From: Candidatus Pacearchaeota archaeon
GTDB taxonomy: Archaea; Nanobdellota; Nanobdellia; Pacearchaeales; GW2011-AR1
NCBI GenBank assembly: GCA_016866975.1
Contig: VGKP01000013.1
Coordinates: forward strand, 1 to 26,357
Reading direction: 5' to 3'
DNA: 26,357 nucleotides
Part shown: piece by piece, positions 7,401 to 25,829 of the stretch
Layout of the letters: every line of letters begins with the position of its first letter
Numbering within the stretch: position 1 is the first letter of the stretch
The notes under the pieces: model-generated
Seen by the model: only the letters and a program-made list of their open reading frames with translations
Told to the model about the DNA's origin: nothing
Databases searched by the model: none
Translations under genes and position numbers: made by a program

Positions 7401-7459
7401 TTAATTCTAAAATTAATTGGTTATATCTCTTTTTTAAACATCTATTCTTAAAAATCAAA

Positions 7460-7564
7460 AAAACGATGCGCCACTGCGGCTTAAACCTCGAGGATGTGAA
7501 TCCTCGATGGCAGTCAGGAATCTTAGATTCCTGATGAGCCGCAGTTTGATGCAGGCGCTCGTTT
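7460..7564 (+). repeat. Structured dispersed element, copy A (multibranch fold)
   Basis: AAACGA/TCGTTT, GCGCC/GGCGC and CTGCGGCT/AGCCGCAG enclose hairpins CGAGGAT-GTGA-ATCCTCG and TCAGGAATC-TTA-GATTCCTGA; homologous copy at 17396..17474. Confidence 0.85.
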
Positions 7565-7566
7565 CA

Positions 7567-7673
7567 CCAAGAACATTGTTCTTGGATGCCATCAAGAATA
7601 GAAGATTCTTGAGGTTTGGATGCTCAAGGAACAACTCCAGCTTAAAAGCTGGAGTTTTAGTCAAGTTCCTTGA
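7567..7673. repeat. Array of REP-like palindromes
   Basis: CCAAGAAC-att-GTTCTTGG (7567-85), TCAAGAAT-agaag-ATTCTTGA (7592-7612), TCAAGGAAC...GTTCCTTGA (7624-73) enclosing AACTCCAGCT-taaa-AGCTGGAGTT. Confidence 0.85.
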
Positions 7674-7680
7674 CATAAAA

Positions 7681-7902
7681 TGGCCTCGAGGGGATTTGAA
7701 CCCCCGACACCTGGATTTCCTAAGAAACCTACGGTTCGTCAAGGACGAAGTCCTTGAGCACGCTCAGGAATCTTTGATTCCTGACGTCTTGTGGGTCAAC
7801 TTCCCTCAAGAAAATGCCTTATGTCCCCGAGGAGGGTTCATAAGGGTAACGTAGTTCCCTTATTAAGAGTCCAGTACTCTGACCGGGCTGAGCTACGAGG
7901 CC
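7681..7902 (-). tRNA. tRNA-Lys(CTT) with 147-nt anticodon-loop intron; CCA not encoded
   Basis: Acceptor GGCCTCG/CGAGGCC+A, D arm GCTCAG..., anticodon arm CTGGA-CT-CTT-AA-TCCAG after splicing, T arm GGGGGTTCAAATCCCC; 75-nt mature tRNA; upstream TTTTTAAA. Confidence 0.95.
7717..7863 (-). other. tRNA-Lys intron (147 nt; 7716..7862 if spliced at 38/39)
   Basis: Closed by TAAGGGAACTACG/CGTAGGTTTCTTA stem; contains four internal hairpins. Confidence 0.9.
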
Positions 7903-7938
7903 ATAAAACACAAAGCAAGAGATGATTTAAAAAAGTAT

Positions 7939-9377: not shown

Positions 9378-9956
9378 ATGGACTTTGATTCAGTTATAGA
9401 CAAGAGGCACTCTGTAAGAGCTTTCAAAAATAAGAAAGCAAGTTGGAAGCTCGTATTAGATGCAATTGATGCTGCAAATCAAGGGCCATTTGCAGATAAC
9501 ATAAACCCGCTTAAGTTTCTGATAATCGAAGAGCAGTCTACAATTGACAAGGTCTCGGAGCTATCAGGACAACTATGGATAAATGAATCAAGTATTTTAG
9601 TCATAGTCTGTTCAGATGATACTCATCTTGAACACCTTCACGGCCAGCGTGGAAAGAGATATTCAAGGCAACAATCTGGGGCAGCCATAAATACCTTCAT
9701 TCTAAAATTAACAGACCTAGGCCTCTCATCATGCTGGGTAGGGGCATTCACAGACGATCTAATAAAGCAACATCTCAAGATTCCAGGACATATTGAAATA
9801 GAAGCAATCATCCCTATTGGTTATGAAAAGACAAAAAGCAACAAAAGAAGGAAAAGACCTTTGGAAAACACTCTCAATTGGGAATCCTGGGGTTCCACAA
9901 AGCGCCCCTCATTATTCAACGAAGATGCTCCCGACCCAGATTTGATAGAGTCGTGA
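9378..9956 (+). CDS. Nitroreductase family protein
   Basis: I.KRHSVRAF FMN-binding start, LGLSSCWVG, IPIGY. Confidence 0.9.
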   Translation: MDFDSVIDKRHSVRAFKNKKASWKLVLDAIDAANQGPFADNINPLKFLIIEEQSTIDKVSELSGQLWINESSILVIVCSDDTHLEHLHGQRGKRYSRQQSGAAINTFILKLTDLGLSSCWVGAFTDDLIKQHLKIPGHIEIEAIIPIGYEKTKSNKRRKRPLENTLNWESWGSTKRPSLFNEDAPDPDLIES

Positions 9957-9960
9957 TCAC

Positions 9961-10115
9961 TCCTGCAGATGAAACTCAACTTTCATCCTGTCAAGAACTT
10001 TGTTCTTGAGCACGATCAAGAATTGCGTTAAACCAATTCTTGACGCATCAGAGTTTTTGAAAAAAATTACTGATGGGATGATATTATTCCTGCAGATGAA
10101 ACTCAACTTTCATCC
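9961..10115. repeat. 28-bp direct repeats (9961-9988, 10088-10115) flanking a 99-bp triple-hairpin insert
   Basis: TCCTGCAGATGAAACTCAACTTTCATCC is identical twice; insert has TCAAGAAC-ttt-GTTCTTGA, TCAAGAATTG..CAATTCTTGA and CATCAG..CTGATG. Confidence 0.92.
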
Positions 10116-10473
10116 CATCGGGATCCTTAGTGAATATGGCAGTTCCACCGTATCCATCATCAGTTATTCCATTATCTTCCATTTCTATTCCCATTTTACG
10201 TAAGGTTCCCTCTATTTCATCCAAGTCTTCTCTGGTATCAATCTTAAAAGCCCAGTGATTTAGTCCTAGTTTCTCAGGATCAAAAGTCTCGTCTTTTCCA
10301 ATTACCAATTGAGAATTCGCGAGCCATAGTGAAAACATTCCATCGGTCAAACCACAAACATCTTCCTCATCATGCATTACTTCCATCCCACATACATCTC
10401 TGTAGAAATCACGTGATTTAGAAATATTCCGCACAATCAAAGTAATATGATGAACTCCAGTTGTTGTAACCAT
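10084..10473 (-). CDS. VOC/glyoxalase family protein
   Basis: GVHHITLIVRNISKSRDFYRDVCG, LNHWAF, IFTKDPDG.KVE. Confidence 0.9.
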   Translation of the reverse strand: MVTTTGVHHITLIVRNISKSRDFYRDVCGMEVMHDEEDVCGLTDGMFSLWLANSQLVIGKDETFDPEKLGLNHWAFKIDTREDLDEIEGTLRKMGIEMEDNGITDDGYGGTAIFTKDPDGMKVEFHLQE

Positions 10474-10623
10474 AAGTAAAAATGAAAAAGAAGATAATTA
10501 AACCTTTTTATTTTTTAATTAATACCTTAACAAAACTCTTCGAGTTTTAACCTCTACCTAAGGTAGAGGATTTCTACGAGCGTTAATAAAACCAAAATTT
10601 TCAAATTGTTACATATAAATCAA

Positions 10624-10668
10624 GGAGCCTCTTTCGAGGCCCCTCAAGAGAAAAATAAAAAAAAGGGA
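10624..10668 (-). terminator. Probable ftsZ terminator (oligo-T tract plus GC hairpin)
   Basis: Minus-strand T-rich run about 20 nt after the stop, then GCCTC-GAAA-GAGGC hairpin. Confidence 0.5.
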
Positions 10669-10688
10669 AGTTAATAAGAACTTTGTCT

Positions 10689-17234: not shown

Positions 17235-17395
17235 GTACCACAATTTCTTTTAGAAGAGATTTGTTTCATGCATGATGCTGAACAAGTACATAAATTCCCA
17301 ATTTAGATTGGAAAGCAACTAGAGGAAATAGGTAAATTAAGAAGTAATAATTCAAAGGCATTTTCATTTAACCATCCTTCTCTTAGACTATCACT

Positions 17396-17474
17396 AAAAC
17401 GATGCGCCACTTCAGATTCATTATAGAAGAAGTTAATCTTAAATGGCAGTCAGGAATCTTAGAATCTTGATGAG
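17396..17474 (+). repeat. Structured dispersed element, copy B (degenerate)
   Basis: 16/16 identity to 7460-75, 30/32 to 7507-38, identical 47-nt offset between motif starts. Confidence 0.85.
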
Positions 17475-17502
17475 GTGTGTTTTTGGTCGATTCTCAACAT
17501 AA

Positions 17503-23666: not shown

Positions 23667-25169
23667 TTAATACTCTCGTGCAATATATACCGTTTCCTTT
23701 GCGGGTTTTCCACACACAATACAAACTCCGGAAGTCTTTGTTTTTCCAATCTCATCAAACTTTCTTCCCCTAACTTTGGCACCTGTGCTTTCTTCAACTT
23801 TATCAGAGCATGAAGCACCGTCTTTTTCTATCGAACAGAATCCGCATCGCACAATACCTCCAGATTCAATGACCTGCTTCGCTTTCTTCAGATCAGTCGC
23901 ATTAATAATCAGATCATCAAATACCTTGTCTGCTTGCCGCATTAGGATTTTACCAGACTCTTCAGCGAGTTTTTTGATATAGCCCAGAACATTTTCCTCT
24001 CGAATTACTTTCTTTTCACCTGTGTCTCTTCGGAATATAGTGACGCTTTTTTCTTTAATGTCTTTCAAGCCAAGATCAATACGTACCGGAACTCCCTTCA
24101 TCTCCCAATGATTGAATTTTTCACCTGCACTTTTATTAGTCATATCAATTTCTACATTAGAAAATGAAGATAACTTATGATATAAGTTGTCAGCTTTCTC
24201 CATAACTTTAGGATCATCAACAATCGGCACTATTACTACTTGAATAGGTGCAAGGTTCCAAGGCAATCTAAGGCCTTTGTCATCGCCATGAACAATAACT
24301 ACACTTGCAAAAATTCGTGAAACTGCAGGACCATAACAAGTAATCCATCCATAATTTTCTTTTCCATCTGCACCAGTATATTTAACTCCAAACCCTTTTG
24401 AGAAAGCCTGGGAAAGTAAATGTGTTGAAGGCTGCTGTACAACTCTCCCATCAGGATTCAAAACATCTGCTGCAAATGTTCGATCTGCCCCAGGAAACTT
24501 ATCCCATGCTGGACGCTCAAAAAAGATAAAAGGCAATCCGAATACATCATGAAGGACTTCTTTTGTAGTCTGCATATCTTCTAGTACCTGTTTTTCAGCA
24601 TCTTTCTCTGTTGCATGTACGCAGTGAGTTTCAATCCAATGAAATTCCCTACTTCGTAAGAATGGTCGTGTTGCTTTAGTCTCATACCTAAAAACATTTG
24701 CCCTCTGGTACGTTTTAAAAGGCAGATCTTTGTAACTTCGAATCCATAAAGAAAACATCTGATAGAAAGCAGTCTCTGAAGTGGGTCTTAAAGCGAGACG
24801 TTCCTCAAATTTCTTATCTCCTCCTTCAGTAACCCAGAACACTTCAGGTGTAAAACCAATAATGTGAGTACTTTCCCGTTTTAAGTTACTTTCAGGAATA
24901 AGAGTAGGGAAAAAATAGGGTTTATGCCGCTTTTGTTGCAAGGTTTTCTCAAGATAAGAGTACATTTTCTCCATAACCATGACTGACCAAGGCTGAAATA
25001 CCAGAAAACCCTTTACATTGTATCGTAAATCGGCAAGTTCTGCCTTCTGCACGACCTGAGTATACCATTCAGAAAAGTCTTCATTCTTTTTTACAGTCAA
25101 ACCCTTAGTATCTTCAATTTTTCCCTTTATTTCTTTCACAACTTCCTTGGCAGCCTTCTCAGTCTTCAT
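23667..25169 (-). CDS. proS: Proline--tRNA ligase, archaeal/eukaryote type
   Basis: FSEWY, ALRPTSE, FRYE.K.TRPFLR.REF, C-terminal zinc domain ending AREY. Confidence 0.96.
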   Translation of the reverse strand: MKTEKAAKEVVKEIKGKIEDTKGLTVKKNEDFSEWYTQVVQKAELADLRYNVKGFLVFQPWSVMVMEKMYSYLEKTLQQKRHKPYFFPTLIPESNLKRESTHIIGFTPEVFWVTEGGDKKFEERLALRPTSETAFYQMFSLWIRSYKDLPFKTYQRANVFRYETKATRPFLRSREFHWIETHCVHATEKDAEKQVLEDMQTTKEVLHDVFGLPFIFFERPAWDKFPGADRTFAADVLNPDGRVVQQPSTHLLSQAFSKGFGVKYTGADGKENYGWITCYGPAVSRIFASVVIVHGDDKGLRLPWNLAPIQVVIVPIVDDPKVMEKADNLYHKLSSFSNVEIDMTNKSAGEKFNHWEMKGVPVRIDLGLKDIKEKSVTIFRRDTGEKKVIREENVLGYIKKLAEESGKILMRQADKVFDDLIINATDLKKAKQVIESGGIVRCGFCSIEKDGASCSDKVEESTGAKVRGRKFDEIGKTKTSGVCIVCGKPAKETVYIAREY

Positions 25170-25575: not shown

Positions 25576-25647
25576 AGAAATTTGATTGGACAATCCTTTA
25601 AAAACCCTTCCTAAAAAAAGTACCCATGTTCAGTAGAAAAAGAAATA

Positions 25648-25779
25648 CGGGTCCAGGAGGAATCGAACCCCCGTTACAGCGTTCCTTCGCTCCTTTCCAA
25701 AAGGGAGGTTGAACAAAAAGGAACAGTCGGGTTCCTTATACTCCGAAGCGCTGCGTTCTATCCACTAAACTATGGACCC
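25648..25779 (-). tRNA. tRNA-Arg(TCG) with 60-nt intron at 37/38 (25683..25742)
   Basis: GGGTCCA/TGGACCC+G acceptor; CAGCG-CT-TCG-GA-CGCTG after splicing; BHB core CTTC/GAAG with 3-nt bulges; 72-nt mature tRNA. Confidence 0.95.
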
Positions 25780-25829
25780 AACAAAAAGAGCCCAAACATC
25801 TTTTTTAATGCTTTGTATACAAATTCTAA

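Follow-up and report, generated by a model that had tools for sequence, protein, structure and literature searches.

Gene-end-copying mini-insertion at the convergent junction of a VOC/glyoxalase-family gene and a nitroreductase-family gene in a Candidatus Pacearchaeota genome

The spacer between a VOC/glyoxalase-family gene and a nitroreductase-family gene of a Candidatus Pacearchaeota archaeon is one more case of a gene-end-copying insertion process that recurs in this lineage. The site lies in the window analysed here, that is, the whole stretch of 26,357 nucleotides (contig C13 of the host genome, G000). The host genome is a metagenome-type assembly of 806 kb in 31 contigs (39% G+C, 89% complete), many of which are broken inside repeats. 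It is a genome of the Woesearchaeota/Pacearchaeota (DPANN) type, as its hairpin module turns up again in MAGs that bear these names. According to the open reading frames and Pfam matches, genes for TFS, signal peptidase and nitroreductase on the plus strand are followed by the VOC gene and the FtsZ gene, both on the minus strand. When covariance models of Rfam 15 were applied, no match at E up to 1 was obtained within 9850-10250, and the gathering score was reached in the window by two tRNAs only. The coordinates of the features are collated in Table 1.

The end of the VOC gene is present twice. An exact 28-bp direct repeat (9961-9988 and 10088-10115) recurs at a spacing of 127. With up to three mismatches allowed, the 28-mer was matched twice in the window, versus 0.00 matches expected from 100 shuffles, and no third copy was found in the 806-kb genome at up to six mismatches. 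In total, 33 nt are homologous (9956-9988 and 10083-10115, respectively), and the two mismatches among them are silent transitions (GAA/GAG and TAA/TGA): the VOC gene ends in GAA-TAA, the downstream copy in GAG-TGA. The downstream copy, which translates as ..MKVEFHLQE-stop in a frame without an upstream gene body, is a non-functional relic, and its TGA directly adjoins the TGA of the nitroreductase gene. Within the 28 bp a 7-6-7 quasi-palindrome (GATGAAA / TTTCATC) is contained. The repeat, stops, hairpins, complementarity and quasi-palindrome that the initial annotation had listed were all found again in the same places. Its claim that an insertion had duplicated the gene end and kept the VOC protein whole was supported by the VOC orthologues (G016, 80% identity; G008, 73%; G001, 59%): MKVEFHLQ(E/K) is the C-terminal strand in all of them, and this strand falls within the Pfam domain match (residues 7-125).

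Orthologues of the nitroreductase gene were present in 15 of the 16 genomes of the genus. The C terminus of the protein reads ..LIES in the host genome, which is one residue beyond the ..FIE of G008 and G016. The extra TCG at this end of the gene (window 9945-9956) breaks an otherwise perfect 12-nt palindrome spanning the two abutting stops.

Table 1. Features of the VOC/nitroreductase junction (positions in the window) and of related insertion sites in the host genome (contig and positions).
Feature	Position	Strand	Description
Nitroreductase-family gene, 192 aa	9378..9956	+	ORF; Pfam PF00881, E 4e-20; stop TGA 9954-9956
VOC 3'-end relic copy	9957..9988	-	exact 28-mer 9961-9988, then G and TGA 9959..9957
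Double-hairpin module, 57 nt	9989..10045	.	hairpin 9991-10009, 6-nt linker, hairpin 10016-10043, 2-nt flanks
Filler, 42 nt	10046..10087	-	last base of GAA, TAA stop 10084-10086, inverted gene-end copy 10072-10081, hairpin
VOC/glyoxalase-family gene, 129 aa, intact	10084..10473	-	ORF; Pfam Glyoxalase PF00903, residues 7-125 of 129
In-gene repeat copy	10088..10115	-	codes last VOC strand ..GMKVEFHLQ and GA of final codon
VOC segment, 10 nt	10110..10119	-	reverse complement at 10072-10081; straddles upstream edge of repeat
L3/L4 insert	G000 C10:12453-12569		16-bp repeat, 85-bp insert
S5/L30 insert	G000 C10:23310-23538		16-bp repeat, 55-nt insert, three tandem 71-nt units
L30/L15 insert	G000 C10:23936-24017		14-bp repeat, 54-nt insert
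tRNA-linked unit sites (Arg-gcg, Ser-gga, Arg-cct, Gly-ccc, Gly-gcc)	G000 C8:30768-30986; C5:20263-20443; C25:3234-3420; C3:25877-26073; C1:78633-78900		

The 99 bp between the two copies contain three hairpins (9991-10009, 10016-10043, and 10046-10051 paired with 10070-10075). The fold of this DNA was calculated at -20.5 kcal/mol (z = -6.4), and none of 200 shuffled sequences folded as well. In addition, GATGGGATGA at 10072-10081 is a perfect 10-bp complement of 10110-10119; an inverted match of this length was found in 3 of 2000 shuffles. In the loop of the filler hairpin a T5 run (10054-10058) lies on the plus strand and a T7 run (10060-10066) on the minus strand. The best match of the 99 bp in its own genome (C7, 83%) covered the double-hairpin part only. 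This part is multicopy, and neither the 42-nt filler nor the whole 99 bp has another copy in the genome: for the filler a single weak 26-nt match at chance level (E 0.01) was obtained, and no convincing second copy. The "palindrome module" of the initial annotation thus has its hairpins and does not form one unit, the 57-nt double hairpin being a separate family member.

When positions 9989-10045 were removed in silico, CTGATG was joined to GGATGA. The direct repeat thereby grew to 32 exact nt (37 nt with two transitions), and two 6-bp pairings were fused into a perfect 12-bp hairpin (-19.8 kcal/mol) with an 18-nt loop, which carries T7 in the VOC sense and T5 in the nitroreductase sense. From the growth of the repeat and the restored 12-bp hairpin a history in two steps was inferred. 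The primary event would have been an insertion of ~70 bp by which the end of the VOC gene was reproduced both as a direct and as an inverted copy. The double hairpin is probably a later arrival, since members of its family insert elsewhere without long duplications. Oligo-T has a known role in archaeal transcription termination, which suggests that the spacer probably acts as a two-way terminator.

The double hairpins, whose family is present in many genomes of the Woesearchaeota/Pacearchaeota type, share a layout: two stems that begin with TCAAG.., between them a GC-rich linker of 6 nt, and flanks of the CG type. The host genome contains 13 double hairpins and ~24 single hairpins; they are situated in tRNA introns (e.g., window 7739-7784) and at the 3' ends of genes, and some lie nested within other repeats. 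By means of the linker motif alone, 23 copies were gathered from five genomes of the genus and seven Woesearchaeota MAGs; the underlying pattern scan of genome contigs returned many chance bacterial matches as well as the module in the Woesearchaeota MAGs. A perfect stem of 8 bp or more was formed by the second hairpin in all 23 copies and by the first hairpin in 20 of them, and the arm sequences varied. Because the arms vary and the stems remain perfect, the changes are compensatory and the module is a conserved structure. Wherever the empty host sequence was available (the hairpin loop of a 122-nt family and a 36-nt core repeat), the module was found to be a clean CG..CG insertion without long duplication. 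No flanking repeats of at least 11 nt were detected at the other 12 doubles or at the single hairpins in the genome, with the exception of L3/L4 (16 bp), nor at the copies of the double hairpin in the genus beyond one chance-level 11-mer. The duplication at the VOC site appears to be unrelated to the insertion of the hairpin family itself.

Several other repeats were recorded along with the hairpins. Pure tandem arrays of the 36-nt "core" unit are found at contig ends (G000 C12:1-163 and C5:47579-47700), and the unit is also present in tRNA introns and in the inserts of the ribosomal-protein junctions; the double hairpin nests in it at a fixed point. Two tRNA genes of the window carry long introns (7680-7903 and 25647-25780). 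Both were called by the intron search of ARAGORN and by Rfam, and neither was called in a default ARAGORN run; the first intron consists of the core unit and a double hairpin. The 23S rRNA gene contains an intron-like insertion whose 3' edge carries a double-hairpin module as well (G000 C6:6172-6219). The dominant dispersed repeat has a length of ~122 nt and occupies ~50 sites genome-wide (e.g., G000 C3:33559-33680; window 7428-7687 and 17387-17483). It falls into two subfamilies, 95-100% and ~83% identical to the reference copy, respectively, and many contig ends lie inside it. As a cause of the VOC-site duplication this family was rejected, its ~50 copies being without long flanking direct repeats.

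Gene ends are duplicated at further sites of the genome. The ribosomal-protein operon on contig C10 contains three junctions with inserts and duplicated junction sequence (Table 1). The inserts are hairpin or "core" mini-elements, and both neighbouring genes survive because the duplicated stretch is the Shine-Dalgarno/stop/start overlap. In G008 the junction is empty and single-copy at L3/L4, S5/L30 and L30/L15; in G016 S5/L30 is empty, and L3/L4 and L30/L15 are filled, with nested differences. The ground on which the initial annotation would have counted as refuted (no other copy with a flanking duplication and no empty allele) does not hold: flanking duplications together with empty alleles in a relative were found at these three junctions. 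An inverted copy of the gene end was absent from the three ribosomal-protein cases, as judged by comparison with shuffled sequences.

Closer counterparts of the VOC site were found behind tRNA genes. Five such genes have units of 59-178 nt directly after them; these units close with a copy of the last 11-23 nt of the tRNA and in several cases are tandemly amplified. Four of the five inserts start with an 8-12-nt inverted copy of the T-arm/acceptor segment at the edge of the repeat, which was matched by 0 to 26 of 2000 shuffles. The geometry of the VOC site is the same, with the direct copy of the end after the insert and the inverted copy at the start of the insert; the latter is 10 nt long at present and 12 nt in the reconstruction. 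An internal motif is common to at least four of the inserts, those behind tRNA-Gly(ccc), tRNA-Gly(gcc), tRNA-Ser and tRNA-Arg(gcg), so that the tRNA-linked inserts constitute a cassette family. This motif is absent from the VOC filler (10046-10087). On a larger scale, 243 bp of the 3' end of rtcB are duplicated (96% identical; G000 C1:22012-22252 and 24264-24504). The two copies bracket a 2.2-kb island with ORFs of 421 aa and 188 aa and without an integrase, and their mismatches are clustered at both ends, as at the VOC site. A scan of all ORF ends gave no further protein-gene case outside the ribosomal operon.

The junction (window 9957-10688) was compared with loci L032-L045. According to the initial annotation the VOC and nitroreductase genes had once been flush. 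An empty allele of this kind was encountered in none of the 16 genomes of the genus, and likewise in none of 12 metagenome loci and in no viral contig, so this part of the proposal was not borne out. When metagenome contigs were scanned with the VOC protein, identities did not exceed 63%, and the scan of viral contigs with a DNA pattern of the VOC end gave no match. In G008 the synteny is kept, with ~400 bp between the VOC and nitroreductase genes, and the distance between the two genes in G016 is ~3.3 kb; a relic of the VOC end beside the nitroreductase gene is present in neither genome. The gap in G008 holds an ORF of 123 aa without a Pfam match (L011:1930-2301), which overlaps the 3' end of the nitroreductase gene by 11 nt. 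In four other species FtsZ is directly convergent with the nitroreductase gene at a distance of 59-128 bp, with no VOC gene in between. The gap between FtsZ and nitroreductase is occupied by 0.6-1.1 kb of other DNA in four species and by the VOC gene in G000 and G008. Such varied junctions mark a variable spot at which the VOC gene is accessory cargo.

We tentatively favour the explanation that the 127-bp spacer arose by two successive events, the integration of a gene-end-mimicking cassette and the subsequent insertion of a double hairpin, and hold it to be not quite an even bet. In the first event, the structure of which was reconstructed from the sequence, a unit of ~70 bp would have integrated at the end of the VOC gene. 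Three things would have been brought in or generated by it: a duplicate of the final 32-37 bp of the gene, in which the end is recoded (GAA-TAA in place of GAG-TGA); a 12-nt inverted copy of the start of this segment, which would have given rise to the perfect hairpin; and an AT-rich loop that has oligo-T on each strand. Of the two gene-end copies, the upstream one would keep the VOC gene whole, and the downstream one would be left as a relic beside the stop of the nitroreductase gene. The likeliest mechanism would be site-specific or short-homology recombination (Campbell/att-type) of a small hairpin cassette; the insertions behind tRNA genes and at rtcB may be parallels within the host genome. 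In the second event the 57-nt double-hairpin module would have entered the 3' arm of the hairpin formed in the first.

The copies differ by two silent transitions at the distal edge, and their similarity decays on both sides, as is expected if the incoming unit carried a gene end of its own. Integration of a cassette is likeliest to account for these clustered edge differences and fits the rtcB island and the tRNA cassette family. The att-like integration put forward in the initial annotation was borne out as regards the direct repeat of the gene end and the intact gene; the integrase, the cargo and the empty site belonging to such an integration were not found. The host genome encodes two tyrosine recombinases, both on contigs other than C13, and no recombinase gene is adjacent to the VOC site. 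Since the filler has neither a convincing second copy nor a family motif, nothing shows that it ever moved. Furthermore, a double-stranded circle of 70 bp is implausible on physical grounds, and the intermediate would have to be single-stranded or linear; the spacing from target to inverted copy ranges from 6 to 28 nt among the cases, which is at odds with one fixed core site of a recombinase; and the lack of an inverted copy in the ribosomal-protein cases means that more than one process may act.

Several of these points would be met by an error of local replication or repair without any mobile unit, an explanation that we regard as rather unlikely. A fork stalled or broken at the quasi-palindromic end of the gene would have re-copied the last ~35 nt as a tandem duplication, a snap-back template switch would have written the inverted copy and the filler, and the double hairpin would have been added later. 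Template switching is known to give rise to a perfect inverted copy, and with it a new hairpin, in a single event (PMC8794818, PMC5453318), and products of this kind are matched by the inverted copy of 10-12 nt, which lies within 30 nt of its source. The filler without a convincing second copy, the quasi-palindromic (7-6-7) duplicated segment, and the lack of a recombinase, reverse transcriptase or Cas1 linked to the site point in the same direction. Such an error, however, requires both later substitutions to have fallen within the last 5 of 37 positions, for which we estimate a chance of ~0.02-0.04, and it provides no local template for the 18-nt loop. Moreover, inserts of this architecture, with an internal motif in common, stand behind several tRNA genes, which argues for a cassette and not for independent accidents.

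Insertion of the whole 99-bp palindromic element in the manner of a transposon, with a 28-bp target-site duplication formed by a staggered cut and fill-in, is improbable. The insert does include a member of a dispersed hairpin family, and the elements at the three ribosomal-protein junctions, the sites of which are empty in G008, are flanked by target duplications of 14-16 bp. IS200/IS605-type Y1 transposase genes are present in the host genome as well (G000 C10:194-541, C6:1-153 and C12:26760-26912); contig ends truncate two of the three, and the element is therefore probably a multicopy IS. Against transposition, elements of the IS200/IS605 type are not known to make a target duplication. 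The other copies of the hairpin family, L3/L4 excepted, lack flanking repeats of at least 11 nt, and the 122-nt family with its ~50 copies lacks long ones. An insert that started with A-TAA by chance, and in this way kept the last residue and the stop, would be expected with a probability of ~0.03 by our estimate, and in the reconstruction the double hairpin splits a hairpin that was already there. Among archaeal genomes, that of a Woesearchaea ranks with those of highest MITE density (PMC11602168), which would favour transposition; the duplications made by MITEs, however, have a fixed length of 2-10 bp (PMC11602168), compared with 28-37 bp at the VOC site, and the initial annotation likewise called 28 bp much longer than usual for a transposon.

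A chimeric joining of two strain variants through the 28-bp repeat is very improbable. The assembly is of the metagenome type, with 31 contigs, many of them broken in repeats; the 99-bp middle part, however, has no second copy and would fit inside one typical read, which means that the two junctions must be present on single molecules, and 28 bp is less than the larger k-mers commonly used by assemblers. Analogous structures are also present at seven or more other loci of the host and in an independent assembly (G016, L30/L15).

Scarcely credible, finally, is an ectopic integration of the CRISPR type, in which Cas1-Cas2 would have placed a spacer-sized fragment at a palindromic non-CRISPR site with a duplication of repeat length: in E. 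coli spacers are known to integrate off target with duplication of a stretch of repeat length, and the lengths before the arrival of the double hairpin would fit (duplication ~32-37 bp and partly palindromic, insert ~33-38 bp), but no Cas1 was found in the genome (89% complete), no CRISPR array was found among its short-range repeats, and spacer capture leaves the inverted copy of its own target unexplained.

Three further candidates were rejected. A 28-bp site of the Xer/dif type was discarded, as the 28-mer and the 7-6-7 palindrome occur only at the VOC locus in the genome. For a bulge-helix-bulge intron two 3-nt bulges separated by a 4-bp helix were required; the two copies pair in helices of 7, 4 and 7 bp, in this order, that are separated by 1x1 mismatches and have no 3-nt bulges, and the VOC protein is complete without splicing. 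Insertion mediated by a reverse transcriptase, which gives variable duplications, was dismissed because no reverse transcriptase was found in the genome.

In genomes as small as these there is almost no intergenic DNA and genes abut or overlap, so that an insertion is expected to destroy something. The VOC locus and its relatives in the host indicate that copying of the gene end during insertion lets spacers, terminators and repeat landing pads arise harmlessly. It is conceivable, if on the whole doubtful, that DPANN archaea of this group possess an undescribed process by which gene-less hairpin cassettes of ~70-85 nt are placed directly behind tRNA and protein genes and by which direct and inverted copies of the target end are written. 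Such a process would supply ultra-compact genomes with spacers, terminators and new recombination substrates and leave the neighbours unharmed, and with the VOC site it would be seen for the first time at a protein gene in a convergent junction. If the tRNA cassettes, the ribosomal junction inserts and the VOC site were all made by one dedicated mechanism, this would be a new mobile or recombination process. It would also bear on the spread of archaeal introns and repeats, because the same hairpin modules fill tRNA introns of the host. If the VOC site were merely an accident of template switching, it would still illustrate, as a clean case from nature, how a terminator hairpin can arise in a single step.

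Among known systems, integrative elements that use att sites within tRNA or protein genes, with a tyrosine recombinase or by Campbell-type recombination, leave a duplicate of the 3' end of the gene they target, and the work of Williams (2002) on tRNA sublocations reportedly gives an example of such elements at gene 3' ends. As in these elements, the direct repeat at the VOC site is the 3' end of a gene, the gene is intact, and silent differences lie at the edge of the identity block; the rtcB case (243 bp, 2.2 kb of cargo) is a clear larger example in the host genome. The VOC unit differs from them in being only ~70 bp long (99 bp with the module), with 99 non-coding bp between the copies, and in having no integrase, no other genes and no second copy.

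In E. coli, tRNA genes are linked to repeats such as the 178-bp repeats of tyrT and related ones. Here a short non-coding unit follows the gene, ends in a copy of its last ~20 nt and is sometimes amplified, and units of this sort are carried by five tRNA genes of the host. At the VOC site, in contrast, the host gene is protein-coding, the junction is convergent, the unit is single-copy, and no motif is shared.

VOC/glyoxalase genes are common cargo of integrons. The attC site resembles the VOC site in that an imperfect hairpin stands right after a cassette-type gene and one of its arms matches the recombination point. The VOC site, however, has no conserved core-site motif, array or nearby recombinase, and it shows a duplication of ~30 bp, which integron insertion does not produce. 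Mycobacterial MIRUs are, like the inserts at the VOC site and the other junctions, mini-repeats between tightly packed genes that preserve the stop and start signals of the neighbours; they are located inside operons and translated as bridging mini-ORFs, whereas the VOC site is a tail-to-tail junction.

The double-hairpin part resembles palindromes of the MITE, REP or BIME type, being small, gene-less, hairpin-forming, intergenic, multicopy and situated at the 3' ends of convergent genes; MITEs make duplications of 2-10 bp (PMC11602168) and REPs none, compared with 28-37 bp at the VOC site. Short template switches (PMC5453318, PMC8794818) have in common with the VOC site a perfect inverted copy nearby and a new hairpin formed in a single step, but do not on their own yield a direct duplication of 32-37 bp together with an untemplated 18-nt loop. 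Set beside these systems, the VOC locus is a gene-end-copying mini-insertion at a convergent junction of two protein genes, probably colonised later by a conserved double-hairpin module.
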